NCBI GenBank assembly: GCA_018263575.1
Contig: JAANWX010000002.1
Span: forward strand, 7,552-71,551
DNA from: Chloroflexota bacterium
GTDB lineage: Bacteria; Chloroflexota; Anaerolineae; Anaerolineales; UBA11858
Direction of reading: 5' to 3'
Length of the DNA: 64,000 nt
In this document: positions 9,667-63,373 of the stretch, one piece after another
Layout: the number at the start of each line of letters is the position of its first letter
Numbering within the stretch: the stretch's first letter is position 1
The notes under the pieces: generated by a model
Database searches by the model: none
Told to the model about the DNA's origin: nothing
What the model saw: the letters and a program-made list of their open reading frames with translations, nothing else
Program-made: the position numbers and the translations under genes

Positions 9667-11022
<1,356 letters not shown>

Positions 11023-22943: not shown

Positions 22944-22953
22944 TCGCTAACCC

Positions 22954-44935: not shown

Positions 44936-45733
44936 TTAATACACGCTCACAGAGCTGACGCCAGTCTCAATCTCTAAATCGAGCTTGTTGGCGGCAGTTT
45001 CATAGTCGGGGGATTGGTATACTTTCCCTTGGCGGGGGAAGCGGTCCCGGTCGATGTTGACCGCAGCCAGACCACTTTGGGTTTGGATACGGGCCGCCAC
45101 GCCCTGGGGGATGGTGACCGTCACCGCTGCCGCACCAGCTTCGATTTTGGCCCGTGTGTGCCCCGCCGCGCCCGGCATGGTCACCGTGCTTGAGCTAGCC
45201 CCGGTTTGGAGGTGAAGATGGGTCACCCGCAGATCCCGTAGGTCAAGCTGCGTTTCACCCGCCCCGGTCTCAAGCTCTAGTTCGAGAGGGATTTCACGGC
45301 TCAGGCTAAAGTTCCAGCGGAAACCGGAACTTGGTCCCCATACCAAAAAAGGCATCCCATGCTGATCGGGTTTCAACTTGAGGACAAGTGTGTGGCCATC
45401 TGACTTGGTGCTATACGCCAATCCGCCCCCAAACGTTCCGGCGAGCAGCTCCCCTGGGGCTGGGGCATCGCCCACGAGGTGCAAGCGTCCCGCGCCGTGC
45501 TGGATGTGAACCCGTGCCCGTTCCGCCCCCTCCAGGGGAATGGTGACCTCTTCCACCTCGCGAGAGGGCTGGCCGAAGAATGATCCCCACAGAAGCCATA
45601 TCCCAGCCACGATCAAGAACAAAGGCCACAATAATTTCCAGGCGTTGATATCCAAAATGTTCAAATTGCTTAGGAGCAGTAATCCTCCGCCTAAGATGAG
45701 GAGTACGGCCCAAAAATAATTATCTCTTCTCAT
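44936..45733 (-). CDS. LiaF-like membrane protein (N-terminal DUF5668 helices plus a C-terminal beta-rich toastrack/DUF2154-like domain)
   Basis: YFWAVLLILGGGLLLLSNLNILDINAWKLLWPLFLIVAGIWLLW is followed by a repetitive beta-strand pattern (..LELELETGAGETQLDL..LHLQTGASSSTVTM..IEAGAAAVTVTI..LEIETGVSSVSVY). Confidence 0.55.
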   Translation of the reverse strand: MRRDNYFWAVLLILGGGLLLLSNLNILDINAWKLLWPLFLIVAGIWLLWGSFFGQPSREVEEVTIPLEGAERARVHIQHGAGRLHLVGDAPAPGELLAGTFGGGLAYSTKSDGHTLVLKLKPDQHGMPFLVWGPSSGFRWNFSLSREIPLELELETGAGETQLDLRDLRVTHLHLQTGASSSTVTMPGAAGHTRAKIEAGAAAVTVTIPQGVAARIQTQSGLAAVNIDRDRFPRQGKVYQSPDYETAANKLDLEIETGVSSVSVY

Positions 45734-45763
45734 GTTTTATTCTCCACTTCGTTGTGGTAGTTG

Positions 45764-46264
45764 TTATCTTTTCCGAAAGAAAGGGCGGACAAGCAAGATC
45801 AGGCCCAATAGAATCAACAAGGCGGGCCAGTAGTCACCTAACATGCCCAAGGCCCCAAAGAAGGATCCAAAGACACTGAAAAGAATCAGGCTGATGAGGA
45901 TAAGCCAGCCACCCTCCCGCCAAGAGGTGTCTTTCTCGCCGCCGAGAACTTTGGCCAGCAAGATACCTGTTCCCACAAATCCGGGGATCAAGGCCCACAG
46001 ATAGCTCCAACTTTCCCAGTTCCCGGTGGCGTTTTGATAGGTGAGTATGCCGCCGATGCCGCCCACAATACTGGCGGGAATAGCCATATCCGGCTCACCA
46101 GTCAAGGCGCCAATGGTGAAAAGAAAGAGACCGACGGCAATCACGATCCACGGCCAGGAGAATTGGATGTGGAATCCGGGCAAAATCTGGAAGGCCAATA
46201 AGACCGCCCCGATTAAGATCAACAGCAGTCCCCCAGCCATACTTGTCCTTTTCTTGTTTTTCAT
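45764..46264 (-). CDS. Small polytopic membrane protein (DUF5668-like)
   Basis: The start is moved to MKNKKRTSMAGGLLLILIGAVLLAF (ATG 46264). It has 5 predicted TM helices. Confidence 0.5.
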   Translation of the reverse strand: MKNKKRTSMAGGLLLILIGAVLLAFQILPGFHIQFSWPWIVIAVGLFLFTIGALTGEPDMAIPASIVGGIGGILTYQNATGNWESWSYLWALIPGFVGTGILLAKVLGGEKDTSWREGGWLILISLILFSVFGSFFGALGMLGDYWPALLILLGLILLVRPFFRKR

Positions 46265-46385
46265 TGCAAATCTCCTAAATCTATAATTATTTGATGTCAG
46301 CATATCATATTGGATTGTGTTCTCTCCATTGTGTGCGCTAAAATGTTGTTATTATTTCGCCAGGTCAAAACTAGCAGATCCTCTG

Positions 46386-46430
46386 GCTCTGAAACCTCGG
46401 AGGTCTCCGAGACCTCCGAGGTTTCAGAGC
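46386..46430. repeat. Perfect 45-nt palindrome (22-bp arms) built from ACCTC-N-GAGGT units
   Basis: gctctgaaacctcggaggtctc-c-gagacctccgaggtttcagagc. Confidence 0.9.
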
Positions 46431-46581
46431 CGAAGATCCGCCAACAACATTTGCGCACACACCTCTCCATTTGAATTTTATAGGTACAGTATACCATCAT
46501 CTTTAATTCTAAAAAAAATCCGTCCAATAAGTTAATATGAGATTTGTGGGAAGTAGTTGCACCCTTTTTCGTCGCTTCCCC

Positions 46582-46765
46582 TTGACACGAACTCCGTAAG
46601 GACTTAAAATCCGGCTCAATATGTGTAATCACAACGCTGTCCGCTTTTTTAACGACTATTATTTTACGGCTTCCAAATCGAGGATGCCGTTGGTGGTGCT
46701 TAAGTAGACAAACGTTGGAATACCTGTCGAACTGAGAAGCGAGGCCAAACGGCCTCGCTTTTTTT
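46582..46765 (+). promoter_or_regulatory. aro operon promoter plus a leader with an intrinsic terminator (attenuator)
   Basis: TTGACA (46582..46587), a 17-nt spacer, TAAAAT (46605..46610). The terminator aagcgaggcc-aaac-ggcctcgctt (about 46737..46760) is followed by ttttttgtttt and ends 20 nt before the aroH RBS gaggagg. Confidence 0.65.
46621..46707 (+). CDS. Candidate 28-aa Phe/Tyr-rich leader peptide (MCNHNAVRFFNDYYFTASKSRMPLVVLK)
   Basis: The ATG lies 10 nt after the -10 box. Codons TTT TTT AAC GAC TAT TAT TTT occupy 46645..46665, immediately followed by the hairpin acggcttcc-N7-ggatgccgt. Confidence 0.45.
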   Translation: MCNHNAVRFFNDYYFTASKSRMPLVVLK

Positions 46766-46784
46766 GTTTTCTGAGGAGGTTATT

Positions 46785-47156
46785 ATGCCAGTAAGAGGAA
46801 TTCGCGGCGCAACCGTTGCCAGCGCAAACCAATCGGAAGCCATCCTGCTTGCCACGCGGGAGCTTCTGGATGCCATCCTGGTTGCTAACCCGGAACTGAA
46901 ACCCGAGGATGTTGCCAGCGTGTTGTTCACCGTCACTGAGGACCTGACCGCCACTTATCCCGCCAAAGCTGCCCGCCAGTTCGGGTGGACGGAAATTCCT
47001 TTGATGTGCGCGCGTGAAATCCCCGTTGCCGAGAGCCCACCGTTTTGCATACGGGTTTTGCTCCACTGGAATACACATTTGCCCCAATCCGTTATCTACC
47101 ATGTTTATCTGGGAGAAACTGCCCGATTACGCCCAGATCTAAAACAGGTGGTGTAA
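46785..47156 (+). CDS. aroH: Chorismate mutase, AroH class
   Basis: MPVRGIRGATVASANQSEAILLATRELL.. with RBS gaggagg. I prefer ATG 46785 over the track start at 46764. Confidence 0.9.
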   Translation: MPVRGIRGATVASANQSEAILLATRELLDAILVANPELKPEDVASVLFTVTEDLTATYPAKAARQFGWTEIPLMCAREIPVAESPPFCIRVLLHWNTHLPQSVIYHVYLGETARLRPDLKQVV

Positions 47157-47275
47157 AGATCGAGCCGGAACCGTGTTCCGGTGGCGCCTGCAATGATATC
47201 CGGCGGAACACCGGAGGTGTGCAAAGCCGTGTTTCCGCAACGTTTATAAAAAAATTAAGATGAGGAGAAAAAACC

Positions 47276-48319
47276 ATGATGATCATAATGCGCACGGAAG
47301 CAACCCAATCACAAATTGCCTCTGTCGTCGCCCGCATTGAGAAACAGGGCCTGCGAGCGCACATCTCTCACGGCGCCGAACGCACCGCCATTGGCGCCAT
47401 TGGAGATGGGCGGCTCATTAACAGAGATACTTATATCCTCCTACCTGGGGTAGACCGCGTTGTCTCGATTTCGCGACCGTATAAGCTGGCCTCGCGGGAA
47501 TTTTGTCCCGAAGACTCGGGCTTTCCGGTGGATGGCGTGCATGTCAGGCCCGGTCAGGTGCTGTTGATCGCCGGTCCATGCGCCGTCGAGAGTCGTAGCC
47601 AGATGTTGGAAGTAGCCCAGGCCGTACACGAAGCTGGCGCCCACGCCCTGCGGGGAGGGGCTTATAAACCGCGCACTTCCCCTTATTCTTTCCAGGGACT
47701 GGGCAAAGAAGGCCTGGAGATCCTGGCCGAAGCCCGCGAACTGACCGGTTTGCCCGTCATCACCGAAGTCATGGCCCCTGAGAAGGTATCCCTTGTGGCT
47801 GAATACGCCGATGTCTTGCAAATTGGGGCCAGAAATATGCAAAACTATGCCCTCTTACGCGCTGTGGGAGAAAGCCATCAACCCGTACTCCTGAAACGCG
47901 GCATGAGCGCCACCATCAAAGACCTGTTGATGGCCGCTGAATATATCCTTTCCCATGACAATGAGCGGGTGATGCTCTGTGAGCGCGGCATCCGCACCTT
48001 CGAAACCGCCACCCGGAATACGACCGACATCAACGCCATTCCGGTGCTCAAGTCACTCACCCACCTGCCAGTCATTCTCGACCCCAGCCACAGCACGGGA
48101 CACTGGGAGTTCGTCAGTGCGGTGGCGCGAGCTGGAATCGCGGCCGGGGCCGATGGCCTGATGGTCGAAGTACATCCCCACCCCGAAGAAGCCCTTTCGG
48201 ACGGCGGGCAATCCCTCAGGCCGAAGCGCTTCGCCGAACTTGTAGAGGAGGTCAAATCGATAGCCGAAGCCATGGGACGCAAGGTGCCTCCCCAACCTGT
48301 CCCAAAGCTCGAAGACTAA
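47276..48319 (+). CDS. 3-deoxy-7-phosphoheptulonate (DAHP) synthase, type I-beta with an N-terminal ferredoxin-like regulatory domain
   Basis: The N-terminus [32 protein letters not shown] resembles the Thermotoga-type FL domain. The catalytic core has [16 protein letters not shown] and ..DPSHSTG... Confidence 0.9.
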
Positions 48320-48328
48320 GAGGCCCAC

Positions 48329-49183
48329 ATGGAAGATCCCCATTTTTTTACCAACACCAAGATAGCCATCGTTGGGCTTGGCCTGATGGGCGGATCGCTG
48401 GCCCTGGACCTGCGCGGCCGCTGCCAGACTCTTCTGGCCGTAGACCCTGACCCGGCCACGAGGGCACGATCCCTGGAAAACAAAATTGTCGATCAAGTTT
48501 CCGGCGATCCAGCCGAAATCTTGCCCCAGGCGGATCTTATCCTCTTGGCCGCGCCGGTGGGCGTGATCCTGGAATTCATCCCCCGCCTCCCGGAGCTTGT
48601 CCCCCAGTCAGTTGTTGTCCTGGATATCGGTTCCACGAAAGTGCAGATATGCCAGGCTCTCGATGACCTGCCCCCGCGTTTCGAACCCATCGGCGGACAT
48701 CCCATGTGCGGGAAGGCTGTGAACGGCCTTTCTCACGCCGAAGCGGGCCTCTTTCAGGGTGCACCTTTTGCTTTCACCCCCCTCTCCCGCACCACGGAGC
48801 GCGCCCGGGAGACCGCCGACCAACTTGCCTATGCCCTCCACGCCCGCCCACTCTGGGTTGGCCCCAACACGCACGATAGCTGGGTGGCGGCCACCAGTCA
48901 TCTTCCTCATATCCTGGCCACAGCCCTGGTCTTAAGCACGGAGGCCGAAGCCTCGCACCTCGTCGGGCCTGGGTTTCGCAGCACCTCCCGCCTGGCAGGC
49001 AGCCCCTCCTCGGTTACCCTGCCCATCATGGAAACCAATCGCTCCCATATCCTCGAAGCCATTGAGCGGTTTCGCCTCCATTTGGATGCGTTGGAGGATT
49101 GCTTGACCCGAGGCGATTATCCTGCCCTGAAAGATTATCTCGACACCGGCGCGGCTAACAGGAGTCTACTCACTGGAATTTAA
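48329..49183 (+). CDS. tyrA: Prephenate (or arogenate) dehydrogenase
   Basis: NAD-binding IAIVGLGLMGGSLAL, ..GGHPMCGK.., and operon context. Confidence 0.85.
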   Translation: MEDPHFFTNTKIAIVGLGLMGGSLALDLRGRCQTLLAVDPDPATRARSLENKIVDQVSGDPAEILPQADLILLAAPVGVILEFIPRLPELVPQSVVVLDIGSTKVQICQALDDLPPRFEPIGGHPMCGKAVNGLSHAEAGLFQGAPFAFTPLSRTTERARETADQLAYALHARPLWVGPNTHDSWVAATSHLPHILATALVLSTEAEASHLVGPGFRSTSRLAGSPSSVTLPIMETNRSHILEAIERFRLHLDALEDCLTRGDYPALKDYLDTGAANRSLLTGI

Positions 49184-49185
49184 GA

Positions 49186-50358
49186 ATGAAGTCTCAAACA
49201 ATAGCATCCCCCGCCAGTCCAATTGACAAACTAACCCCTAATTTCTTCGCCACGCTGAATGATAAGATTTTTGCCTTAGAATCAGCCGGCGCGGAAGTTA
49301 TCCGTCTCGATATTGGCTCGCCAGACCTTCCCCCGGCACCTCATATCGTCAAAGCGCTCACCCGGGCAGCGTCCCAGCCAGGAAAGCACGGATACCAATC
49401 TCACCGGGGCACAGCCGCGCTCAGGGAGGGGTGGGGGGAAATGTACCAAAGTGTCCATGGAGTTTCTTTAGACCCCGAAACAGAAATCCTGCCCCTGCTT
49501 GGCTCCAAAGAGGGCGTGTTCCATCTCTCTTTAGCGCTCCTCAATCCGGGTGATATTGTGCTCATCCCGGACCCTGGTTATCAGACCTATGCCCAAGGCG
49601 CTTTGCTCGCCGGAGCTGAACCCGTTCCTCTCCCCCTCCTCCCCCAAAATAACTATCTCCCCGATTTAGAATCTATTCCGGAGGATGTTGCTCAACGCGC
49701 CAAACTCCTCTGGCTTAACTATCCCCATAACCCCACCGCTGCCACCGCCTCCCTGGATTTCTTCGCTGAAGCTGTGGATTTCTGCCGCCGCTTGGACATT
49801 CTGCTCTGCCATGACGCTCCCTACGCCCAGATCACTTTCGATGGTTATCAGGCCCCCAGCGTGCTCCAGGTGCCCGGCGCGGGCGAGGTCGCCATAGAGT
49901 TCAACACCCTCTCGAAGTCTCACAATATGGCCGGCTGGCGCAGCGGGGTGGTGGTGGGGCAACCCCAAGCTTTATGCGCGCTGCTCAAGCTCAAATCCCA
50001 CGCTGACAGCGGCCATTTCCTGCCCATCCTCGAAGCATCAACCGCCGCCCTGACCGGGGATCAATCCTGGTTGGTCGAGCGGAACGCAATTTATCAGGAA
50101 CGGCGGGATGTGGTAGTGACTGCTCTGGGGGAGATGGGACACGCTCCCCGGGTCCCAAAGGCTTCTTTGTATGTGTGGTTCCCCGTGCTCAATGACCTGC
50201 CCTCAGAAGATTTTGTTCTGCGACTTTTAGAAGAGGCTCATCTTTCTCTGGCCCCTGGGACAATTTTTGGGCCGCGTGGGGAAGGCTATGTGCGTCTCTC
50301 ACTGACACAACCCATAGAAAAAATTACCGAAGCCATGGAGAGAATGCAAGCCTTGTAA
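49186..50358 (+). CDS. PLP-dependent aminotransferase class I (aspartate/aromatic/LL-DAP aminotransferase-like)
   Basis: NYPHNPT and the PLP-lysine segment FNTLSKSHNMAGWRSG. The start lies 2 nt after the tyrA stop. Confidence 0.8.
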   Translation: MKSQTIASPASPIDKLTPNFFATLNDKIFALESAGAEVIRLDIGSPDLPPAPHIVKALTRAASQPGKHGYQSHRGTAALREGWGEMYQSVHGVSLDPETEILPLLGSKEGVFHLSLALLNPGDIVLIPDPGYQTYAQGALLAGAEPVPLPLLPQNNYLPDLESIPEDVAQRAKLLWLNYPHNPTAATASLDFFAEAVDFCRRLDILLCHDAPYAQITFDGYQAPSVLQVPGAGEVAIEFNTLSKSHNMAGWRSGVVVGQPQALCALLKLKSHADSGHFLPILEASTAALTGDQSWLVERNAIYQERRDVVVTALGEMGHAPRVPKASLYVWFPVLNDLPSEDFVLRLLEEAHLSLAPGTIFGPRGEGYVRLSLTQPIEKITEAMERMQAL

Positions 50359-50380
50359 TCATTCAGTCCCTGCCCTCACC

Positions 50381-51292
50381 CTAGCCCTCGCTCTGCGTGC
50401 CCGCTGGGCATCCCTCAGGAGAGGGGACAGCCTCCTCTTCATGAACCGCGCCGCTCTCCTCAACATAATGACGAGGGTACGAGCCTAAGACTTTCATGAA
50501 TGTGACTAACTCGCCTAAATGGTCCAAGGCACGCGCGCAATTGGTTGCCCCCTGGTGGCCTTTGAAATCGACATAAAACATATACTCCCAGGGCTTCCCA
50601 GCGATGGGACGGGATTCAATTTTTGTCAGGTCGATGTCGCGTAAAGCAAACACACTCAGGGCCTTGAATAAAATCCCCGGTTCATTTTTCAGGCTGAAGA
50701 CAACTGAGGTTTTATAATCCCCTTCCTCGGGATCTTCCACAGCCAGGGGGTCTTTGGCTATTGCTAAAAACCGAGTGTAATTGGCCGGATTATCTTCCAG
50801 TTTCTCGATGAGAATTTCTAAGCCGTACACTTCTGCGGCTCGCTTGGAGGCAATTGCCGCCGTCGCGGAGTTGGCCTTGGCCTCCACGAATCGCGCGCTC
50901 CCGGCCGTATCCGTCTCGGCAATGCCGTGAATGCCTAATTCCGCCAAGCTGCCCTCACATTGCTGCAATGCCTGGGGATGCGAATGCACAACGCGAATAT
51001 CTTCCACGCTAACACCGGTAAGCCCCAACAGACAATGGCTGACTTTCATGTGATATTCCCCCACAAGAAAAACGTCATTGTGCAAAATCAGGTCATAACT
51101 ACGGTGAATGCTCCCCGTCAGTGAATTCTCGAAAGGCAGCAAGCCGTGGCTACATTCCCCGCTGCTGACAGCCTCGAATGTGCGCTCGAAGCTGTCACAT
51201 GGCAAAGTGCTGATCTCATCCCCAAAATGCTTGAAAGCGGCCAACTCGCTATAGGCCCCAGGTTCTCCTTGGAAAGCAATTATTTTTTTCAT
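50381..51292 (-). CDS. pheA: Prephenate dehydratase (PDT plus ACT domain)
   Basis: The start is moved to MKKIIAFQGEPGAYSE (ATG 51292). NYTRFLAI and an ACT domain are present. The C-terminal tail ..AVPSPEGCPAGTQSEG is repeat-encoded. Confidence 0.9.
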   Translation of the reverse strand: MKKIIAFQGEPGAYSELAAFKHFGDEISTLPCDSFERTFEAVSSGECSHGLLPFENSLTGSIHRSYDLILHNDVFLVGEYHMKVSHCLLGLTGVSVEDIRVVHSHPQALQQCEGSLAELGIHGIAETDTAGSARFVEAKANSATAAIASKRAAEVYGLEILIEKLEDNPANYTRFLAIAKDPLAVEDPEEGDYKTSVVFSLKNEPGILFKALSVFALRDIDLTKIESRPIAGKPWEYMFYVDFKGHQGATNCARALDHLGELVTFMKVLGSYPRHYVEESGAVHEEEAVPSPEGCPAGTQSEG

Positions 51293-51438
51293 AAGTTTTC
51301 TGCCCTCATCCCGATCGGCGAAGCGTCTCCCGACCGAGCCAGGGACCCGACCGGAGGTCTCCAATCCTCTGCCCTCACCCTAGCCCTCTCCCAGGGGGAG
51401 AGGGGACCCATCCCCTCATCACCTCGTTACCTCACCCC

Positions 51439-52353
51439 TCATCCCTCAACATACTCCAACCACTCCTCCGAGCGTTCCCCCCCACCCTTGACGGTTTGGA
51501 AAAAGGCCGTTTGCAGGGCTTCTGCCACCGGGCCACGCCGCCCGGCCCCAATCTGGCGGTGGTCGATGGTGCTTACGGGGGTGACTTCGGCCGCTGTCCC
51601 GCATACAAAGACCTCATCGGCAATGTAGAGCTGATCACGCGAGATGGGTTCTTCCACGACCGGGTAGCCCAGGTCATTCGCCAGGGTGAGAACGGAGTCA
51701 CGGGTGATGCCTTCTAAAATTGTCGCTCGCGGCGGGGTGTAGATCACGCCATCCCGCACCAGGAAGAGATTCTCCCCGCTGCATTCGGCCACGTAACCGG
51801 TCGGATCGAGCATGATGGCCTCGTCATAACCGGAACGCACGGCCAGGGTCTTGGCCAGCACCGAGTTGGCGTAATTCCCCGTGATTTTGGCCTTGGTCAT
51901 GGAGACGTTGATGTGGTGGCGGGTGAAGGAGGACACGGTCATGTGCACCCCATTTTCCAGGCCCTCATCGCCCAGGTAGGCGCCCCATTCCCAGGTCGAG
52001 ATGCTCACATGCGGGGTGTTGGCGTCCAGGTTGAGGGTGAAGGAACCGTCAAAATATAACAAGGGACGGATGTAGCAACCCTTGAAGCCATTGGCGCTAA
52101 TCGTCTCGTGGGAGGCCTTGCGCAAGTCTTCCACCGAATAGGGAAATTCCTGTACCCCTAGCACCTGGGCCGAGTCGACAAAGCGCTCTAAGTGCTCCCT
52201 GAGTCGAAAAACCGCCCCTCCTTGCGGCGTGTCATAAGCGCGAATCCCCTCAAAGGCCCCGTACCCGTAGTGCAGGGAAGGCGTGTTCACATGAATCTGG
52301 GCCTCTTCGTAAGGGACAAGTTCCCCGTCCATCCAAACATAATCTGATTTCAT
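51439..52353 (-). CDS. ilvE: Branched-chain amino acid aminotransferase
   Basis: Fold-type IV pattern (..GAFEGIRAY.., ..GITRDSV..). I prefer ATG 52353 (RBS aggag 8 nt upstream) over 52374, which lies inside the repeat array. Confidence 0.9.
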   Translation of the reverse strand: MKSDYVWMDGELVPYEEAQIHVNTPSLHYGYGAFEGIRAYDTPQGGAVFRLREHLERFVDSAQVLGVQEFPYSVEDLRKASHETISANGFKGCYIRPLLYFDGSFTLNLDANTPHVSISTWEWGAYLGDEGLENGVHMTVSSFTRHHINVSMTKAKITGNYANSVLAKTLAVRSGYDEAIMLDPTGYVAECSGENLFLVRDGVIYTPPRATILEGITRDSVLTLANDLGYPVVEEPISRDQLYIADEVFVCGTAAEVTPVSTIDHRQIGAGRRGPVAEALQTAFFQTVKGGGERSEEWLEYVEG

Positions 52354-52380
52354 TAAATTTCTCCTATCACTCATTACTCG

Positions 52381-53478
52381 TTACTCATCACTCATCCCCC
52401 GTACAATTTCCTTCGTCATCTCCGCCGTGTTGAGCGCGGATTCCCCTGGGGTGGCGAGGTCACCGGTGCGGCACCCGGCCTTCAGCGTCTCCCCGACGGC
52501 GGATTCCACGGCCCTGGCCTCCTGCTCCAATCCCAGAGAGTGGCGCAACAACATGGCCACGGAGAGAATGGTTCCGATGGGATTGGCGATTCTCTTCCCG
52601 GCGATGTCCGGCGCCGAACCGTGAATAGGCTCATACATGCCGCGTGGGTTTCCGTGCCGGTTCCGGGATTCTCCCAGGGAGGCGGACGGCAAATTGCCCA
52701 TCGACCCTGTCAGCACCGAGGCCTCGTCGGTGAGGATATCCCCAAACATGTTGGTCGTTACCATAACGTCGAAAGTGGCCGGGCGGGTGATCAGGTGCAT
52801 GGTGGCGGCGTCCACGAGCAGGGTCTCGAACTCGATTTGGGGATATTCCTCGGCTACCTGGGTGACCGTCTGCCGCCACAGCCGCGAGGTTTCCAGGACG
52901 TTGGCCTTATCCACCGAGGTAACTTTTCCGCGCCGCTCCCCGGCCAGTTGAAAGGCCAGGTGGGCGATGCGGCGCACTTCACTCTCAGTGTAGGCCATCG
53001 TGTCCACCGCTTGGGTTTCACCGTTGACCTGGCGGCGCTCCCTCGGCCGGCCAAAGTAAATCCCCCCCGTCAGCTCGCGCACGACCAACAAATCCACCTC
53101 GGGGAGCAAATCCGGGCGCAAGGGGGAGGCCGAGAGCAACTCCGCGTGGGGCTTAACCGGGCGCAAATTGGCAAAAAGCTCCAGCCCTTTGCGCAGCCCC
53201 AGCAGGCCCTGTTCCGGGCGGACGGGAGCGGTGGGATCATCCCACTTGGGACCGCCCACGGCGCCCAACAGGATGGCATCCGCCTGGCGGCAAGCGGCCA
53301 ACGTCTCTTCGGGGAGCGGGTCTCCCTCCGCGTCAATGGCCGCCCCGCCGACAAGATGGGTCTCCATTTTAAAAGTATGATCAAAAATATCTGCTACAGC
53401 TTCTAAAACTTCTTGCCCGGCGGCGACAACTTCGCTTCCGATGCCGTCTCCGGGGAGTAATATGATGGTTGGGTTCAT
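52381..53478 (-). CDS. leuB: 3-isopropylmalate dehydrogenase
   Basis: [12 protein letters not shown] and [12 protein letters not shown] motifs. There is no SD upstream, because the octamer array abuts the ATG. Confidence 0.95.
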
Positions 53479-53580
53479 AGTCTTTAGTCTGGTAGTCTGG
53501 TAGTCTTTAGTCTGGTAGTCTCGTAGTCTGGTAGTCTGTAGTCTTTAGTCTGGTAGTCCGGTAGTCTCCTAGTCACTAGT
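53479..53580. repeat. Octamer tandem array (CTGGTAGT/CTTTAGT)n abutting the leuB start
   Basis: agtctttagtctggtagtctggtagtctttagtctggtagtctcgtagtctggtagtctgtagtctttagtctggtagtccggtagtctcctagtcactagt. This is the reverse complement of the 42840..42906 array type. Confidence 0.9.
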
Positions 53581-53732
53581 ATATGGCGGTGTAAATTCAT
53601 TGAAGGTTAATATTTGCGCTCAAGGTGCGTTGCACTCCTGTTTTCACGGTGTGCACCCATGGTGGGGAGTGCATTGCACCTGGGAACCCCCAAAGGATTT
53701 CCGCTGAGTCGTACTAGTCCCTCAATCCCTAG

Positions 53733-55340
53733 TCACTGATTCCTGCTTCCCTGTTCCCTGTTCCCTGTTCCCTGTTCCCTGTTTCCCTGCTCCTTAAGCA
53801 ACGCATGCTCCATACTATCGGCCAAGGCGCGCCAACTGGCTTCGATGATGTTCGTGCTGGCCCCGACTGTGCTCCAGCGATCCTTGCCGTTTTTGGTATC
53901 GATCAACACGCGCACATTGGCGGCCGTGCCGCTTTCGCTGTCCAAAATGCGCACTTTGTAGTCATCCAGCCGAATCTCCTTCAGGCGCGGGTACACGTCC
54001 ACCAGGGCCTTGCGCAGGGCCGCGTCCAGGGCATTGACCGGGCCATTACCCTCCGCCGCTGTGTGAAATACGCGATCGCCAATACGCACCTTGACCGTGG
54101 CCTCGGCAAATACCCCGCGACCCTGGCGGTGCTCCACCACGACCATAAAATCGATTAGCTCGAAAGGTTTTTGGTAATGGGGTTGATTGCGACGCACCAT
54201 CAAATTAACGGAGGCTTCTGCGCTCTCGAATGTAAATCCCTGCGCCTCCAACTCTTTGATCTCTTTCACCACCGCCCGCGCTTGTTCCCGGTTCACGTCC
54301 AGCCCAAATTCGTGGGCCTTGTCGATCACGTTCCCGCGCCCGGAAAGTTCCGAAACCAGGGTGCGCCGGTGATTGCCCACCAGGGCGGGATCAATGTGCT
54401 GGTAAGCGTCTTCGTTCTTGAGCACCGCCGCCACATGAATGCCCCCCTTATGCGCGAAGGCTTTTTTCCCCACAAAGGGCAGGTAGGGATTGGGCGTCTG
54501 GTTGGCAACTTCGTCCACATAATACGAGAGATCGGCCAGCCCGGCCAGGTTTTCTGGGGGGATGCAGGGGAGGCCCATCTTCAATTGCAGGTTGGGGATG
54601 ATGGTGCACAGATTGGCGTTGCCCACCCGTTCCCCGTACCCGTTGACCGTCCCCTGGACGTGAACTGCCCCGGCGTGGACGGCCGCCAGCGTGTTCGCCG
54701 TCCCGTTGCCCCCATCGTTGTGGGCGTGAACCCCCAGGGGAGTGTCGAGTTCCTGGCCGACTTGGCCGGTGATCTCCCCAATCTCCCAGGGCAGCGACCC
54801 GCCGTTGGTATCGCAAAGCACCAAGACATCCGCCCCGGCCTCAGCCGCGGCCCGGAGCGTGCCCAGCGCGTAATCGGGATTGGCCTTATAACCGTCGAAG
54901 AAATGTTCCGCGTCGTAGACGACTTCTTTGCCATGGGCCTGCATGTAGGCCACGCTCTCTTCGATCATGGCCAAATTTTCTTCCGGGGTTGTTTCCAGCA
55001 CATCGTGGACGTGCAGTTCCCAGCTTTTCCCAACCAGGGTGACCACAGGCGTCCCCGCCGCGAGCAAGGCCTGGAGATTAGCGTCGTCTTCCGGGAGAGT
55101 GTCCTTCCGTCGCGTGGACCCAAAAGCGGCAATTTGGGCGTTTTCCAGGTCCAGGGAGCGGGCGCGTTCGAAGAACTCAGCATCCTTGGGGTTGGAACCC
55201 GGCCATCCCCCCTCGATGGTGTCGATGCCAAACTGGTCCAGACGCCGGGCAATCTTCAACTTATCGTTCACAGAAAGCGAGATACCCTCGCTCTGTGTAC
55301 CGTCTCGGAGGGTGGTGTCGTAGATAGAAATGTTAGACAT
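53733..55340 (-). CDS. cimA: (R)-citramalate synthase (LeuA-family, CimA-type)
   Basis: MSNISIYDTTLRDGTQSEGISLSVNDKLKIARRLDQFGIDTIEGGWPGSNPKD, at about 535 aa with a C-terminal LeuA_dimer-like domain. The tail EQGNREQGTGNREQGSRNQ is encoded by the (CCCTGTT)5 array at 53749..53783. Confidence 0.85.
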   Translation of the reverse strand: MSNISIYDTTLRDGTQSEGISLSVNDKLKIARRLDQFGIDTIEGGWPGSNPKDAEFFERARSLDLENAQIAAFGSTRRKDTLPEDDANLQALLAAGTPVVTLVGKSWELHVHDVLETTPEENLAMIEESVAYMQAHGKEVVYDAEHFFDGYKANPDYALGTLRAAAEAGADVLVLCDTNGGSLPWEIGEITGQVGQELDTPLGVHAHNDGGNGTANTLAAVHAGAVHVQGTVNGYGERVGNANLCTIIPNLQLKMGLPCIPPENLAGLADLSYYVDEVANQTPNPYLPFVGKKAFAHKGGIHVAAVLKNEDAYQHIDPALVGNHRRTLVSELSGRGNVIDKAHEFGLDVNREQARAVVKEIKELEAQGFTFESAEASVNLMVRRNQPHYQKPFELIDFMVVVEHRQGRGVFAEATVKVRIGDRVFHTAAEGNGPVNALDAALRKALVDVYPRLKEIRLDDYKVRILDSESGTAANVRVLIDTKNGKDRWSTVGASTNIIEASWRALADSMEHALLKEQGNREQGTGNREQGSRNQ

Positions 55341-55350
55341 GGAGTTCTCC

Positions 55351-55437
55351 TGGTGGGTTGGTGGACTGGTAAATTGGTGGATTGGTCTAATCGGTGGACT
55401 GGTAAATTGGTGGATCGGTATATTGGTCTAATTGGTC
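55351..55437. repeat. Degenerate octamer array (TTGGTGGA/CTGGTAAA)n upstream of cimA
   Basis: tggtgggttggtggactggtaaattggtggattggtctaatcggtggactggtaaattggtggatcggtatattggtctaattggtc. Confidence 0.9.
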
Positions 55438-55646
55438 CCGGTAAGTCGATTGGAAATCGACGCTGTTCTGCAAAACCGACCTTGCCCAAAGGGCACGCAC
55501 AGCGCGTCGGTTGATCTAATCCGCGTAGGCGGATTTTGCGCACCGGCGGCGAATTCGATTCGCCCGGTAAGTCGATTGGAAATCGACGCTGTTCCACGAA
55601 ACCGACCTGCGTCGGTTGATTCTAATCCGCGTAGGCGGATTTCGCC
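55437..55646. repeat. Tandem duplication of an 85-105-bp multi-hairpin element
   Basis: Copy A is 55437..55540 and copy B is 55563..55646. Both contain cccggtaa-gtcgatt-gga-aatcgac-gctgttc...aaaccgacc..gcgtcggttgat.ctaatccgc-gtag-gcggatt. Copy A carries an extra module ttgcccaaagggcacgcacag. Confidence 0.85.
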
Positions 55647-55674
55647 TTACTCATTACTCATTACTCATTACTCA

Positions 55675-56262
55675 TCACTCTTCACTCCCTTCAAAAGCAG
55701 CAATCTCCGCTTCGTGCTTGAGCAAGTACCCCAATTGATCGATGCCCTCGAGCAGACACGTTTTGCTAAAGGGATCAAGGGGGAAAGCGGCCTCCGTCCC
55801 ATCTGGGAGTTTCACCGTTTGGGCGGGGAGGTCGATGCGCACCTCCAGGGAGGGAGCAGAGTCCAGCGCGGCGGCCAGTTTGGCGTGGGTTTCCGTGTCC
55901 ACCGTCACCGGGAGCAGGCCGTTCTTAAGGGCGTTGTTATAAAAAATATCGGCGAAGGAGGTGGCAAGGATGGCCCGGATCCCCCATCCGGCCAATGCCC
56001 AGGGAGCGTGCTCCCGGGAAGATCCGCAGCCAAAATTATCACCCGCCAACAGAATTTGCGCCTCCGCGTATTGGGGCTGGTTGAGGGGAAAATCCGGGTT
56101 TGGATCCCCATCGTCCAGATACTGCCACCCGGCAAACAACCCTTCGGCCAGACCGGCCTTATCGGTCACTTTCAGGTAGCGGGCGGGGATGATTTGGTCG
56201 GTGTCGATATCGTCCCGGAGGAGGGGGATTACGGGGGAGGTTAGGGTTTTGAATGGGTTCAT
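55675..56262 (-). CDS. leuD: 3-isopropylmalate dehydratase small subunit
   Basis: 195 aa, ..GDNFGCGSSREHAPWAL... There is no SD upstream, because an array abuts the ATG. Confidence 0.95.
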   Translation of the reverse strand: MNPFKTLTSPVIPLLRDDIDTDQIIPARYLKVTDKAGLAEGLFAGWQYLDDGDPNPDFPLNQPQYAEAQILLAGDNFGCGSSREHAPWALAGWGIRAILATSFADIFYNNALKNGLLPVTVDTETHAKLAAALDSAPSLEVRIDLPAQTVKLPDGTEAAFPLDPFSKTCLLEGIDQLGYLLKHEAEIAAFEGSEE

Positions 56263-56328
56263 TAGTCGAGTAGTTGGTAGTCGAGTAGTCGTTAGTCGGG
56301 TAGTCGTTAGTCGTTAGTCTGGTAGTCA
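56263..56328. repeat. Hexa/heptamer array (TAGTCG/TAGTCGT)n abutting the leuD start
   Basis: tagtcgagtagttggtagtcgagtagtcgttagtcgggtagtcgttagtcgttagtctggtagtc. Confidence 0.9.
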
Positions 56329-56477
56329 GGGGATAGCGAAGGTTTTGCCAGAGGCACGCCTACGGCGTAACTTAGCGCAGTGGTTCGGTGGGGAGATGGT
56401 TCGTTCCTCACCACAGGCCTTCACTATCGTGAGTTGGTAGTCAGGTAAATCACGCATCACTCGTTACTCATTACTCA

Positions 56478-57899
56478 TTACTCTTCACGTTTCACGTCTC
56501 CACACATCACTCTCGGATCTATGACCTTTCCAGCCACAGCCGACGCCGCCGCGGTGAGAGGACTGGCCAAAAAGGTGCGCCCTCCCGGCCCTTGGCGGCT
56601 TTCGAAGTTGCGGTTGCTGGTGCTGACCGCGTATTGGCCAGGGGATAGTTGGTCCCCGTTCATGGCCAGGCACATGCTGCAACCGGCGTGGCGCCATCCC
56701 GCGCCCGCTTGCCGGAAGACCTCATCAAGGCCCTCGGCCTCAGCCTTTCGGCGGACGTTCCCAGAACCGGGGACGACCAACATGCGCACCCCTTCGGCGA
56801 CTTTTCGCCCGCGCAGCAAGTCAGCCGCGGCGCGTAAATCGTTGAGGCGGCCGTTGGTGCAGCTCCCCAGGAAAACAACATCAACCGGATGGCCTTGCAA
56901 GGGCTTTCCTGGCGCCAAGTCCATGTAGCGGAGGGTTTTTTCCAGTGCCGCGCGCCGGTCCGGGTCACTTTCCCTCGCCGGGGTGGGGATGGGTTGGCGG
57001 ATCGGCCCGCCCATGGCCGGGTTGGTGCCGTAGGTGATCATCGGTTCCAGCGCGGCAGCGTCCAGGGAGATTGTTTGGTCGTAGCTGGCCCCCGGGTCGG
57101 AGGAGAGATTCCGCCAACGGTCCAGGGATTCTTCCCAGGCTTCCCCCACCGGCGCGGAGGGACGTCCCCGCAGATAGGCGAAGGTGGTCTCGTCGGGAGC
57201 GACCATCCCCGCCCGCGCCCCGGCCTCGATGCTCATGTTGCACAGCGTCATGCGCGATTCCATATCCAGGGCACGCACGGCCGGGCCGGTGAACTCGATC
57301 ACGTGCCCGGTCCCGCCGCCCACCCCAATCTCAGCGATGAGGGCCAGAATCATATCTTTGGCAGTGACTCCGGCGCCGAGTTGGCCTTCGAAATGAACGC
57401 GCATGGTCTTGGGACGATTTTGGAGCAGGCTTTGGGTGGCCAGGACGTGTTCCACCTCGCTGGTGCCAATCCCAAAGGCCAAGGCCCCGAAAGCGCCGTG
57501 GGTGGAGGTGTGGCTGTCGCCGCAGACGATGGTCATCCCCGGTTGAGTCAGGCCCTGCTCCGGCCCCACAACATGGACAATGCCGCGCTGGGGGTCATTC
57601 AGGTCGTAGAGGTGAATCCCAAAATCCCGGCAATTGGCCTGTAACTGGCGGATTTGCTTTATACCCTGTTCATCCATGGCCGCCAGAGAGAGTTCGATGG
57701 TGGGGGTGACGTGATCCATGGTCGCCACGGTCTGCTCCGGGCGGCGAGTGGGCAGCCCCTTTTCCCGCAAGCCGTTGAACGCCTGCGGCGAGGTGACCTC
57801 GTGAACCAGGTGCAGGTCAATATAAAGCACAGCCGGGGAATCGGGTTCCTGGAGGACTACGTGAGCGTCCCAGATTTTTTCAAAGAGTGTTTTTGGCAT
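56478..57899 (-). CDS. leuC: 3-isopropylmalate dehydratase large subunit
   Basis: [27 protein letters not shown] 57899..57897 overlaps the TGA of the upstream micro-ORF (UGAUG). The track alternative is GTG at 57902. Confidence 0.95.
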
Positions 57900-58096
57900 C
57901 ACTTCGTCAACTCAGACATGCTCCACTTCTCGGGAAAAGTGCGCGGTTTAGGAAATTTTTCCATCGCGCCATTTCCATTGGATTTCGCCGGCGTGATGAG
58001 GTGCTTGTCGGAGATCATCTCCGCCGTGTTCCACTTTGCGGGATAGGTGCGGGGTTTGGGGAATTTTTCAAATACATACTCAGTTTTTTTAGACAT
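57899..58096 (-). CDS. 65-aa protein of unknown function with two EKFPKPRT(Y/F)P.KW repeats, embedded in the leu operon
   Basis: SD AAGGAG begins immediately after the leuA TAA, 8 nt before the ATG, and the stop overlaps the leuC ATG. The two repeat copies differ mostly at synonymous third positions. Confidence 0.6.
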
Positions 58097-58107
58097 TTTT
58101 CTTCTCC

Positions 58108-59745
58108 TTAAACAACAATTTCAGCTTCCTGCTCAAGATACTCTCGAGCAGCAATTAACTTGTTCAACCCGGATAGATAAGCCTTGGCGCTGGCAACGAT
58201 GATGTCGGTATCGGCCCCGTAACCGCCAAAGGATCGGGCGTGGCTGCGTCCGCTTTGGGGCGAGGTGCGGCGGGGGATGGAACCGTTTTCGGGCTTGAGG
58301 CGCACGGTCACTTCCCCGATGGCGTCAATCCCCTCGGTGACGGCGTTGACGCTGAACTCCAGCAAGGTGTTGGGGACTTGGAGGACGTCGTCGATGGCCT
58401 TGTAGGCCGCGTCCACGGGACCGGTGCCGACCGAGGCCTGAACGTACGTTTCCCCTTCCGGGCCATGGAGGCGCACCGTGGCGGTGGGAAGCCCCATCGT
58501 CCCGCAGGCCACCTGTAAACCGGCCAGGCTGTAAATCTGCTTGGCCTGGTACATTTGATCTTCCACCAGCACTTCCAGGTCGGCGTCGGTGATGGTCTTC
58601 TTCTTGTCGGCCACTTGCTTGAAACGCTGGAAAGCTTCCGCCAACTCGTCCTCGCCTAGGTCGAATCCCAACTCCTCCAACCGGGTCTTGAGGGCGTGAC
58701 GCCCAGAGTGTTTGCCCAGCACCAACCGAGAGCGGCTCAGCCCCACCGTGGCGGGGAGCATGATCTCGTAGGTGTTGTTATTCTTCAACATGCCATCCTG
58801 GTGAATGCCCGCCTCGTGGGCAAAAGCGTTGGCGCCGACGATGGCCTTATTGGGCTGCACCGGCATCCCCGTGTAATTGGAGATCATGTGGCTGATCCGG
58901 GTGATTTGTTTGGTGTCGATGCCCGTCTCCAGGGCGTAAACCGGGTGGCGGGTGTGGAGGGCCATGACCACTTCCTCGAGGGCAGTGTTCCCGGCCCGTT
59001 CCCCCAGACCATTGACGGTGACTTCGGCCTGGCGTGCCCCGGCCATGATCCCGGCCAGGGTGTTGGCGGTGGCCAAGCCCAGGTCGTTGTGGCAATGCAC
59101 CGAGACGGTCACTTCCTCGATGCCGGGGACGTTGGCCATGATCCCGGCAATGAGATCGCGGAACTCATCCGGGGTGGTGTACCCGACCGTGTCGGGGATG
59201 TTGAGGGTGGTGGCCCCGGCCCGGATGGCGGCTTCCAGTACCCGGTACAAGAAAGCTGGTTGGCTGCGGCCGGCGTCCTCGGGCGAGAACTCCACGTCAG
59301 CGCACAAGGCGTGGGCGTAGGCCACCATCTTGGCGACGCGGGCCAGGACTTCTTCCGGGGACATGCCCAGCTTGTGCTCCATGTGGATGGGTGAGGTCGC
59401 CAAGAAGGTGTGGATGCGGGGACTGGCGGCTGGTTGGACGGCTTCCCAGGCGGCGTCGATGTCCGCTTCGGTGGCCCGGGCCAGGCCGCAGATGATGGGG
59501 GGAGGGGATTCCCCCGCCTCGCCCCCCCGTGGCGTGTTGCCCACCTCCTGCGCGATGCGGTAGACGCCCTGGAAATCGTCCGGGGAGGCCACTGGAAAAC
59601 CGGCCTCGATGATGTCCACCCCCAAACGCGCCAGGCCCCGGGCGATCTCCAACTTTTCGGGAGAGGTCAGGGTCGCGCCGGGAGATTGTTCTCCATCGCG
59701 TAAGGTGGTATCAAAAATGCGGACGTAGTTGTTAGGTTTTGTCAT
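58108..59745 (-). CDS. leuA: 2-isopropylmalate synthase
   Basis: [14 protein letters not shown] and [13 protein letters not shown] motifs, plus a C-terminal LeuA regulatory domain. Confidence 0.95.
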
Positions 59746-59772
59746 AGTTTTTTATGTGTGAGTGGCAACGAG

Positions 59773-59807
59773 CATGTGGCATGTGGCATGTGGCATGTGG
59801 CATGTGG
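59773..59807. repeat. Five perfect tandem copies of CATGTGG
   Basis: catgtgg x5 (hand count), flanked by degenerate copies, lying between the ilvC stop and the leuA start. Confidence 0.95.
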
Positions 59808-59820
59808 TATGTTTTACTCT

Positions 59821-60834
59821 TCACTCTCCCGGCTTAATCGTCACCGGTTCTACAAAAGGCATCATGGAGCGTAGTTCCGCGCCAACTTTTTCGATGGTCT
59901 CTTTTTGCTCTTTTGCACGCTGCTCGTTGAACCAGGGGTGGCCTTGTTGGTTTTCTTCAATCCAAATTTCGGCATAAGTGCCGTCTTGAATGTCGCTTAG
60001 GAGTTGGCGCATGGTGGCGCGGGTTTCATCGGTGATGATCTTAGAACCGGCGTAATAATCACCGTGTTCGGCGGTGTCAGAGACGGAGTAGCGCATGTAG
60101 TTCAGGCCGCCGCGATACATGAGGTCAACGATAAGCTTGAGTTCGTGCATGCACTCGAAATAAGCCAGTTCAGGCTGATAACCAGCCTCGGTGAGGGTTT
60201 CGAATCCGGCTTTGACGAGGGAGGAAACGCCACCGCAGAGTACAGCTTGCTCCCCAAAGAGGTCGGTTTCGGTTTCTTCGGCGAAGGTGGTTTGCACGAC
60301 TCCAGCGCGCGTGGCGCCAATCCCCCAGGCGTAAGCGATGGCGTTTTCTTTCGCGCTTCCGTTGGCATCTTGGTGAACGCCTAAAAGGGAGGGGGTTCCC
60401 CCGCCTTCCGTGAAAATCTCACGGACACGGTGCCCGGGTGCCTTGGGAGCAACCATGCTAACGTCCACATTTTCGGGCGGGGTAATTGTTCCGTAGCGGA
60501 TGTTGAATCCGTGGGCGAACATGAGGGTTTTTCCCGCGCTCAGGTGTGGTGCAATGTGCTCGGTATAAACTTGTGGTTGGCGCGTGTCAGGGATAAGCAC
60601 CATGATCGTATCTGCCCAGGCTGAGGCTTCGGCTACGGTACATACTTCTAAGCCCTCCGTTTCTGCCTTTTTCCAGGATTTACTGCCTTCTCGCAAACCG
60701 ACCCGCACGTCCACGCCGTTGTCATGCAGGTTAAGACTGTGGGCGTGTCCTTGAGAGCCGTATCCGAGCACGGCGACTTTTTTGTTCTTGATCAGGTCGG
60801 GGTTAGCGTCTTTGTCGTAATAGATAGTTGCCAT
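59821..60834 (-). CDS. ilvC: Ketol-acid reductoisomerase (class I)
   Basis: [21 protein letters not shown]. 337 aa. Confidence 0.95.
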
Positions 60835-60846
60835 TTTTAGTTCCTT

Positions 60847-61018
60847 GGTTTGGTGGGTTGGTAGGTTGGTAGATTGGGAAATTGGGAGATTGGGAAACTG
60901 GTGGATTGGTAGATTGGAAGACTGGTGGGTTGGGAAATTGGGAAATTGGCAGATCGGTTCCTAACTCGCAATTCGCAGCTCGCAACTCGTCACTCCTCAC
61001 TCCTCACTCCTCACTCTC
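60847..61018. repeat. Long degenerate array (TTGGKWRR octamers) followed by (CTCGCAA)n/(CACTCCT)n heptamers
   Basis: ggtttggtgggttggtaggttggtagattgggaaattgggagattgggaaactggtggattggtagattggaagactggtgggttgggaaattgggaaattggcag...ctaactcgcaattcgcagctcgcaactcgtcactcctcactcctcactcctcactc. The last part supplies the ilvN tail and stop. Confidence 0.9.
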
Positions 61019-61533
61019 CCCCCATTGGCGCCGGGGGTGTGGCGAATGCCGACGTGGTCACCGCGCATCATGACCACTCGTCCTGTGCGCACCAGTTCCA
61101 GGATGCCGAGGGGGCGCAATAACTCGACCAAGCCTTCGATTTTGTCTTCCGTGCCGGTGATTTCCACGATCACGGAATCGGGCGCGACATCGACGATGCT
61201 GGCCCGAAAGATGGAGGCCAAGTTGGCGATCTCGGTCCGCTGTTCGGGCGTGGCTTTGACCTTGATGAGGACTAAATCTCGCATCACGGCCGGTTGGTTG
61301 GTGACGTCTTGGACGTCGATGACGTTGACCAACTTATAAAGGTTGGCCTCTACGGTGCGGGCGTCAACATTTTCGCTGTCCATGACGATGGTCATGCGCG
61401 AGATGTCGGAACGATCCGTGTGCCCGACGTTGAGGGATTCGATGTTGAAATTCCGGCGGCGAAACAGCGAGGCGATGCGGTTGAGGACGCCGGGGCGGTT
61501 TTCCATAAGTGCAAATACAGTTTGTTGTTGCAT
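60997..61533 (-). CDS. ilvN: Acetolactate synthase small (regulatory) subunit
   Basis: ACT domain, MQQQTVFALMENRPGVLNRIASLFRRRNFNIESL. The tail GGRVRSEE is repeat-encoded. Confidence 0.9.
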   Translation of the reverse strand: MQQQTVFALMENRPGVLNRIASLFRRRNFNIESLNVGHTDRSDISRMTIVMDSENVDARTVEANLYKLVNVIDVQDVTNQPAVMRDLVLIKVKATPEQRTEIANLASIFRASIVDVAPDSVIVEITGTEDKIEGLVELLRPLGILELVRTGRVVMMRGDHVGIRHTPGANGGRVRSEE

Positions 61534-61658
61534 GTTTTCTCCTTCACTTTTAAGCTGGACGCTGATGAACGCTGAGAACGCGGATTCTTTTTTTGGTTTT
61601 TCTCCGTGCTTGTCCGTGCTCCTCTGCGTCCTAAATGAGACTGTTGGGGAGCGATAAG

Positions 61659-63356: not shown

Positions 63357-63373
63357 GTTCTCTCCTTTGATTT

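Follow-up and report, generated by a model that had tools for sequence, protein, structure and literature searches.

The 64,000-nucleotide stretch of Chloroflexota DNA considered here (contig JAANWX010000002.1 of assembly GCA_018263575.1, hereafter the window; coordinates are those of the window and features lie on its plus strand unless the minus strand is named) carries a group of genes for aromatic amino acid biosynthesis at 46785-50358, and immediately in front of them a leader in which a promoter, a very short open reading frame (ORF), RNA hairpins and a terminator follow one another. According to Pfam, the genes encode a type I chorismate mutase (aroH, 46785-47156), a 3-deoxy-D-arabino-heptulosonate 7-phosphate (DAHP) synthase with a ferredoxin-like domain (47276-48319), a prephenate dehydrogenase (tyrA, 48329-49183) and a class I/II aminotransferase (49186-50358), i.e. 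enzymes of the common pathway and of the Tyr/Phe branch. They are presumed to be regulated together as an operon, whose first gene has a Shine-Dalgarno sequence (GAGGAGG, 46773-46779) and starts at the ATG at 46785-46787. The gene order is kept in relatives, but there a 5-enolpyruvylshikimate 3-phosphate synthase takes the place of the aminotransferase. The leader is very probably a ribosome-mediated transcription attenuator that uses a Phe/Tyr-rich leader peptide and acts ahead of the aroH operon.

The leader opens with a sigma-70-type promoter (TTGACA at 46582-46587, a 17-nt spacer and TAAAAT at 46605-46610), which agrees with the consensus at 11 of 12 positions, is the top promoter-like site in a 2-kb scan of 45500-47500, and has an equivalent at the matching distance in relatives. 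Ten bases devoid of a Shine-Dalgarno sequence (CCGGCTCAAT, 46611-46620) separate the -10 box from the ATG at 46621, with which a leader ORF of 28 codons begins (MCNHNAVRFFNDYYFTASKSRMPLVVLK, 46621-46707, stop codon TAG at 46705-46707). Its control codons are found within the string TTT TTT AAC GAC TAT TAT TTT (46645-46665), that is, Phe9 (TTT at 46645), Phe10 (TTT at 46648), Tyr13 (TAT at 46657), Tyr14 (TAT at 46660) and Phe15 (TTT at 46663). Clusters of at least five Phe/Tyr per seven codons occur in just 2 of the 655 ATG-started ORFs of 10-60 amino acids in the window; the second such small ORF (9732, minus strand) is a chance occurrence, lying antisense within the gene at 9667-11022.

At the codon right after the last aromatic one begins a hairpin, P2 (46666-46690), in which ACGGCTTCC (46666-46674) pairs with GGATGCCGT (46682-46690) with one internal U/U mismatch, and which corresponds to the 1:2 (protector) helix of an attenuator. 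The 3:4 helix is an intrinsic terminator (46734-46770) made of a 13-bp stem (46734-46746/46751-46763), an AAAC loop (46747-46750) and a T-run (46759-46765) followed by GTTTT; it is the sole terminator-like site of the 2-kb scan, with a hairpin energy of -21.9 kcal/mol, and no promoter-like site was found by the scan in the 21-nt gap between this terminator and aroH. The promoter, leader ORF, aromatic codons, hairpin and terminator had all been pointed out in an earlier, sequence-only reading of the locus and are all present where it placed them. One detail needs correction, namely the distance of 20 nt that it gave between the terminator and the aroH ribosome-binding site: the stem ends about 10 nt before GAGGAGG, and the T-rich tail reaches to 2-3 nt from it. 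Relative to shuffled sequences, the fold of the whole leader RNA has a z-score of -4.8. The leader region was recovered from six independent assemblies, of which five are identical to the window and one has a single mismatch, and the exact AroH sequence has matches only on contigs of metagenome assemblies.

The upstream regions of aroH orthologues were gathered from genome, metagenome and assembly loci (denoted by L and a number), giving 21 full-length leaders and two that are truncated at the 5′ end. The closest AroH proteins come from Chloroflexota metagenome-assembled genomes and metagenomes, two of them named 'Anaerolineales bacterium' at NCBI. All of these leaders share one architecture, which reads, from 5′ to 3′, sigma-70-like promoter, Phe/Tyr-rich ORF, P2, a conserved core, a spacer, the terminator and aroH. 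The homologous mini-ORFs of the 21 full-length relatives have 24-31 codons, 4-10 of which specify Phe or Tyr, and the 5′ arm of their P2 (ACGGC) begins at, or overlaps, the final Tyr codon. A covariance model built on 19 leaders detects 24 Chloroflexota loci at 59-106 bits, every one of them directly upstream of aroH, and in these 24 loci the cluster of Phe/Tyr codons, the hairpin and the terminator are all kept, as the sequence-only reading would lead one to expect. Searches with the same model gave no match in aroH loci of Bacillaceae, Acidobacteriota and Gemmatimonadota, nor in the Chloroflexota loci L006, L008 and L025.

The last three loci merit a separate remark. L008 (around 1420-1580; also L039) and L006 (around 3800-3950) are distant Chloroflexota aroH loci without the conserved core; the former has a Phe/Tyr-rich mini-ORF (MVMGFYFYFYPGNQ...) and the latter one that begins MQFYYPSPG..., each being followed by a terminator-like hairpin with a T-run, so that, judging from these sequences, an equivalent regulatory logic seems to have been built there from a different RNA sequence. 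In L025 (2700-3005; 65% AroH identity) the attenuator is absent and aroH lies some 30 nt behind a membrane-protein ORF; the gene seems to be embedded in another transcription unit. Within the window itself a second copy of the element was looked for and discarded, as the core motif is single copy window-wide and a weak covariance-model match (21 bits, 22890-22986) falls on an ordinary terminator just past the stop codon of the ORF at 22338-22943.

The manner in which the leader ORF is conserved indicates what selection acts upon. Among the last ten codons before P2 in 19 leaders, Phe and Tyr make up 123 of 190 (65%) in the frame of the ORF, as against 30/190 and 33/190 (16-17%) in the two other frames, and all four aromatic codons are used (TTT 44, TAT 38, TAC 32 and TTC 13 times). 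The N-termini of the leader peptides differ among relatives, the peptide being unconserved outside the Phe/Tyr block. The core consensus, GCCGUUGGYGGYGCUUAAG, is near-invariant over 19-24 loci irrespective of frame: most relatives translate it as Ala-Val-Gly-Gly-Ala-stop (with the UAA inside GCUUAAG), and the window and L029, L030 and L034, where the frame is displaced by one base, as Pro-Leu-Val-Val-Leu-Lys-stop. By these patterns of codons and bases, the ORF is selected as codons and the part downstream of it as RNA.

The change of frame can be traced to a single nucleotide. When window positions 46657-46707 are compared with L052 (2332-2486) and L053 (2291-2440), the run before ACGGC proves to be one T shorter in the window than in its nearest relatives (L052, with 93% AroH identity and the sequence MCNHNTVRFLNYYYYYGFQIKDSVGGA, L053, L055 and L057). 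The difference is not an assembly error, since it is present in all six independent assemblies. The window ORF terminates instead at the second stop of a conserved UAAGUAG (TAAGTAG, 46701-46707), which offers stops in two frames and may thus buffer frameshifts on the U-rich Phe/Tyr run. That a natural frame change of 1 nt is tolerated by way of the second stop implies that RNA, and not peptide, is the selected object.

These observations bear directly on the possibility that the mini-ORF encodes a functional aromatic-rich peptide, or that the transcript is a small RNA, with a constitutive terminator through which a fixed fraction of transcription reads to feed the operon. Trans functions are known for leader transcripts and peptides, such as rnTrpL and peTrpL of Sinorhizobium meliloti (PMC6614838, PMC7298713), and both the promoter and the terminator are strong, as would suit such a role. 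Nevertheless, a peptide whose N-termini vary and whose C-terminus is read in two frames is not what a functional product would be expected to look like, the element is invariably tied to aroH, and the loop and upper stem of the terminator keep a complementarity to the core (see below) that a constitutive terminator does not need. Moreover, a trans role would supplement attenuation and not replace it. This is the least probable of the explanations weighed here, and a leader-peptide attenuator accounts better for the locus.

At the RNA level, RNAalifold applied to the 19 full leaders returns a consensus consisting of P2 and the terminator. Covariation was assessed on a spliced alignment in which the core region was joined to the terminator and the spacer taken out. 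For the terminator and P2 together, 36 cells are changed on both sides of a pair, compared with 15.3 +/- 3.1 in shuffles (0 of 500 shuffles reach the observed value), and the covariation score is 0.285 against 0.148 in shuffled alignments; the terminator is kept with compensatory changes in all relatives. A further helix, P1, can be drawn between a 5′ strand at 46624-46647, which includes the CCGCTT just before the aromatic codons, and a 3′ strand at 46701-46724, which includes both stop codons. A P1-like pairing (CCGCUU with AAGNNG right after the core) is found in about 15 of 19 relatives, with matching changes in some of them (CUUCUU/AAGAAG in L029 and L030, CUCGUUU/AAACGGG in L002).

What had been missing from the sequence-only reading was an antiterminator, and a candidate pairing that excludes the terminator emerged from the folding analyses. 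Its 5′ strand is the conserved core, or region 2 (GCCGTTGGTGGTGCTTAAG, 46686-46704), which doubles as the 3′ arm of P2, contains a TAA in the frame of most relatives and abuts the TAG of the window; more precisely, it is the stretch GCCGTTGGTGGTGCTT (46686-46701) that carries (in relatives) or abuts (in the window) the leader stop codon. The target, or region 3 (AAGCGAGGCCAAACGGC, 46737-46753), takes in the terminator 5′ arm, the loop and the 3 nt with which the 3′ arm begins. In the window, RNAduplex pairs GCCGUUGGU..GUGCUU (46686-46694, 46697-46701) with AAGCG..GCCAA.ACGGC (46737-46741, 46744-46748, 46750-46753) at -17.5 kcal/mol, compared with -21.9 for the terminator hairpin, and 1% of architecture-preserving permutations of the terminator equal this duplex. 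Across 22 of 22 sequences the antiterminator duplex amounts to -12 to -21 kcal/mol, and each of the 22 beats the mean of 500 stem-loop-preserving permutations of its own terminator (mean z -2.3), the fraction of permutations that do as well being 0.004-0.14 per sequence. Within the alignment of 19 sequences, 85% of the antiterminator cells are paired, a share that drops to 37-46% if the partner is shifted by 1-3 columns. Furthermore, when the bases covered by a ribosome halted at the final aromatic codon are masked and the transcript is cut before the 3′ arm of the terminator, the minimum-energy fold joins the core with the terminator 5′ arm in the window and in most of the 14 sequences treated in this way.

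The loop of the terminator is a further part of this evidence. Terminator loops are conserved (AAC, AAAC, CAAC and GAC, plus a CGGC variant that gives U-G pairs), and the CCGUUGG-CCAACGG portion of the pairing draws on the loop and on the bases at the start of the 3′ arm; a loop complementary to the core is unexpected for a plain terminator. The pairing of the loop with the core CCGUUGG explains why the loop is conserved while the spacer between core and terminator is not. The leader elements, their conservation, the complementarity of core and terminator and the mutual exclusivity of the two pairings are thus features of the sequences themselves. That this specific pairing is the antiterminator appears likely from complementarity and folding, with somewhat less assurance than attenuation as such. 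Another strand, CCGCUUUU, located before the aromatic codons, can in some folds without translation pair with the 5′ arm of the terminator; it was rejected because a ribosome stalled at the Phe/Tyr codons would cover it.

The core is conserved more strongly than plain pairing would demand, and this could point to a trans-acting factor, i.e. to a binding site for a protein of the TRAP or PyrR kind, or for an uncharged tRNA as in a T-box, that decides the switch and makes the mini-ORF incidental. The antiterminator bulges of T-boxes bind the ACCA-type 3′ end of tRNA, and the core does have a UGGU complementary to ACCA. However, this UGGU is lost in the GGC-repeat variants L002, L024 and L056 and is UGGC in others, and the roughly 65 nt between the start and the core are filled by the ORF, leaving no room for a Stem I/specifier domain. 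Rfam, consulted at E <= 10 over 45500-47500, yields no leader family (including Phe_leader, RF01859), no T-box (RF00230) and no riboswitch family, and a trans-acting factor would leave the strong in-frame enrichment of Phe and Tyr unexplained. Conservation of the core is sufficiently explained by a triple constraint, since it has to serve P2, the antiterminator and the stop codon, and control by a trans-acting factor is accordingly judged highly improbable next to control by a translating ribosome.

How translation of the leader ORF begins deserves attention in its own right. The ATG of 16 of the 21 leaders follows the -10 hexamer at a distance of 7-12 nt, without a Shine-Dalgarno sequence and usually in a conserved CCCAAT-ATG context, and in the other five the distance from the -10 box to the ATG is 15-33 nt, likewise without a good Shine-Dalgarno sequence. 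Such spacing in 16 of 21 leaders, together with the missing Shine-Dalgarno sequence, indicates a very short or absent 5′ untranslated region (UTR), so that conservation speaks for the (near-)leaderless translation proposed in the sequence-only reading. By the usual distance from a -10 box to a transcription start, the window transcript would start at about A46618/A46619, with a 5′ UTR of some 2-3 nt. In most family members the ATG is 9-11 nt from the -10 box, the classical 7-nt spacing being found only in L061, which suggests 5′ UTRs of about 2-4 nt and not a strict 5′-AUG. The same reading had regarded such a start as an unusual variant, and here precedents tell otherwise: 14 leaderless leader peptides, one of them starting at -1, have been predicted in Deinococcus deserti (PMC4007540), the trpL leader peptide of S. 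meliloti is leaderless (PMC6614838), and mycobacteria have leaderless poly-Cys short ORFs (bioRxiv 10.1101/834739). As predicted for the Chloroflexota leaders, the ORF in these systems is at or about 1 base from the 5′ end, lacks a Shine-Dalgarno sequence and stalls ribosomes at cognate codons; their starts were mapped experimentally, whereas that of the window is deduced from promoter spacing alone.

Taken together, the mini-ORF, the hairpin and the terminator conserved across relatives, along with the antiterminator, support the attenuator interpretation with which the sequence-only reading had started, and the element most likely responds to charged tRNA-Phe and tRNA-Tyr by adjusting read-through into the operon. 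The transcript start, the stalling of ribosomes, the kinetics of folding and the response to amino acids in the following account are modelled on the classical trp/pheA attenuators. Transcription would start at, or a few bases before, the ATG at 46621, and the leader would be translated without a Shine-Dalgarno sequence. With Phe and Tyr plentiful, the ribosome would reach the stop codon at 46705-46707 and cover the core (46686-46701), in which case the terminator (46734-46763 plus the T-run) would form and transcription would end before aroH. With Phe-tRNA or Tyr-tRNA scarce, the ribosome would stall at Tyr13-Tyr14-Phe15 (46657-46665) and cover the 5′ arm of P2 (46666-46674) as well as the 5′ strand of P1, leaving the core single-stranded and able to capture the emerging 46737-46753 (the 5′ arm of the terminator, its loop and the bases that open the 3′ arm); the terminator would be blocked and RNA polymerase would read into aroH. 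If there were no translation at all, P1 and P2 would sequester the core, making termination the default.

The geometry of the leader agrees with this account. With its A site on Tyr13, Tyr14 or Phe15, a ribosome would shield about 12-15 nt downstream, the 5′ arm of P2 starts at the base after Phe15 and the core starts 21 nt after Phe15, and the stop codon at 46705 is 4 nt past the core in the window (in relatives the TAA is inside the core), so that region 2 would be freed by a stall at the control codons and masked when the ribosome stands at the stop. Control codons for both Phe and Tyr fit the operon because it encodes shared enzymes (DAHP synthase, chorismate mutase and the aminotransferase) along with the Tyr branch enzyme.

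Several points weigh against this picture and need to be set next to the evidence above. The leader ORF of the window has 5 aromatic codons, compared with 6-10 in most relatives, and P1 scores weakly, with a mean z of -0.96. Full-length equilibrium folds always keep the terminator, even when the bases under the ribosome are masked; with the terminator always more stable at equilibrium, the switch must be kinetic, as in the trp attenuator. The antiterminator shows no covariation above shuffles (0.180 vs 0.184, with 289 of 500 shuffles equalling it), which means that its support consists of conserved complementarity and the permutation test, and part of the complementarity arises because the structure was derived from the same sequences. 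As for the start of translation, E. coli initiates poorly on a 5′ UTR of 2-3 nt without a Shine-Dalgarno sequence, so that translation of the leader may be inefficient, and the predicted share of leaderless genes in Chloroflexi is low (about 4.7%, in 4 of 12 genomes; PMC3160421). The interpretation accordingly predicts efficient initiation on a nearly UTR-less transcript in a phylum for which leaderless genes are predicted to be scarce.

The missing covariation could also mean that the locus is a leader-peptide attenuator with some other antiterminator (the segment after the stop codon, or the spacer, pairing with a terminator arm), or that it works through translation or Rho access. In keeping with this, the fold of the cut transcript picked a somewhat different pairing in L024 and L026, and the duplex is weak in L003 and L036 (-11.9 kcal/mol, with about 13% of permutations equalling it). 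On the other hand, the spacer between core and terminator is conserved in neither sequence nor length (19-29 nt in most loci), and the core-terminator pairing is the one feature common to 22 of 22 sequences. Against the variant that acts on translation, sequestration of the aroH Shine-Dalgarno sequence occurs in no predicted fold. These arrangements are therefore thought unlikely, if slightly less so than a trans-acting factor, and the core-terminator pairing is retained as the candidate antiterminator.

Some other features of the window touch upon the operon or its leader. Between aroH and the DAHP synthase gene, a 120-nt gap (47157-47275) contains G/C-rich hairpins and no T-run; it was considered as a second regulatory element and dismissed, given a fold z-score of -1.0 and the fact that in relatives only a Shine-Dalgarno sequence is conserved there. 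Directly before the attenuator promoter, the divergent intergenic region holds a long nested palindrome (46331-46462), in which perfect 23-nt arms (46385-46407/46409-46431) sit inside 20-nt outer arms (46331-46350/46443-46462) that are 85% complementary. The window has no further copy of it, and in relatives the corresponding place is taken by ordinary terminators of the upstream gene. The palindrome may act as an insulator or a bidirectional terminator, or be a remnant resembling a miniature inverted-repeat transposable element (MITE). Matches to miRNA-like Rfam families at 46370-46445 are an effect of this palindrome.

On the minus strand, at 50381-63446, a string of genes converges on the aroH operon with 22 nt between the ends, in the order ilvB-ilvN-ilvC-leuA-leuC-leuD-(second leuA/citramalate synthase-like)-leuB-ilvE-pheA, where the names from leuC onward are based on Pfam and those of ilvBNC and the first leuA were guessed from ORF size and order. 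Since pheA is at the end of this convergent ilv-leu operon, it is outside the control of the Phe/Tyr leader. An ORF of about 65 amino acids between leuA and leuC (57900-58096, minus strand) has an internal repeat, EKFPKPRT(Y/F)P.KW. A G/C-rich element, CCCCTCTCC...GAGGGCTAGGGTGAGGGCAG, flanks pheA on both sides (50370-50435 and 51365-51405, minus strand), its downstream copy spanning the pheA stop codon, and L029 and L030 have similar inserts containing GGGTGAGGG after the attenuator terminator and ahead of aroH. It may belong to a repeat family of the repetitive extragenic palindromic (REP) or MITE type.

With respect to existing resources, the whole window matches nothing in Rfam at the gathering threshold but a tRNA, and literature searches for an aromatic attenuator in Chloroflexi found no description, within an incomplete coverage of subscription journals that may miss older comparative surveys of attenuators. 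The element is thus a real, strongly conserved and uncurated member of a well-known kind of attenuator for which there is no Rfam family. It extends classical ribosome-mediated attenuation to Chloroflexota, mostly to uncultured Anaerolineae-like lineages, and annotators gain a family that is ready for covariance models and marks the aroH/DAHP synthase/tyrA operon, while the understanding of how attenuation works is unchanged. A bolder proposal, and one that we regard as possible without being probable, is that Anaerolineae-like Chloroflexota possess a distinct, lineage-wide family of attenuators without Shine-Dalgarno sequences, either leaderless or with a 5′ UTR of 2-4 nt, distinguished by the integration of Phe and Tyr, an antiterminator that invades the loop and apex of the terminator, and a two-frame stop (UAAGUAG) that would deliver the ribosome to the masking position after a frameshift or a 1-nt indel.

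The sequence-only reading had described the layout as the classical attenuation of Proteobacteria; the layout does match, but it is not specific to that phylum, as seen in Corynebacterium glutamicum. In the account given of it in PMC11802643 (after Neshat et al. 2014), this actinobacterium's leader peptide aroR, with Phe-Tyr-Phe, attenuates the aroF (DAHP synthase) operon, and limitation for Phe is the only one reported there to matter. Compared by description only, aroR likewise combines mixed Phe/Tyr control codons with a DAHP synthase operon, and it differs in belonging to Actinobacteria and, as described there, in having three control codons versus 4-10 in the Chloroflexota family. The closest parallel in layout is the pheL-pheA leader of E. 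coli (and also trp, his and pheST), in which a short ORF rich in cognate codons precedes the operon, a 1:2 hairpin follows right after the control codons, region 2 is at or next to the leader stop, the 2:3 and 3:4 pairings exclude each other, and 3:4 serves as an intrinsic terminator just ahead of the first biosynthetic gene. Unlike pheL-pheA, to which it has no similarity of sequence or model, the leader described here has codons for Phe and Tyr and not for Phe only; its targets are aroH, DAHP synthase, TyrA and the aminotransferase instead of pheA; its ORF in the window lacks a Shine-Dalgarno sequence and starts about 10 nt from the -10 box; and its candidate antiterminator in the window reaches into the terminator loop.

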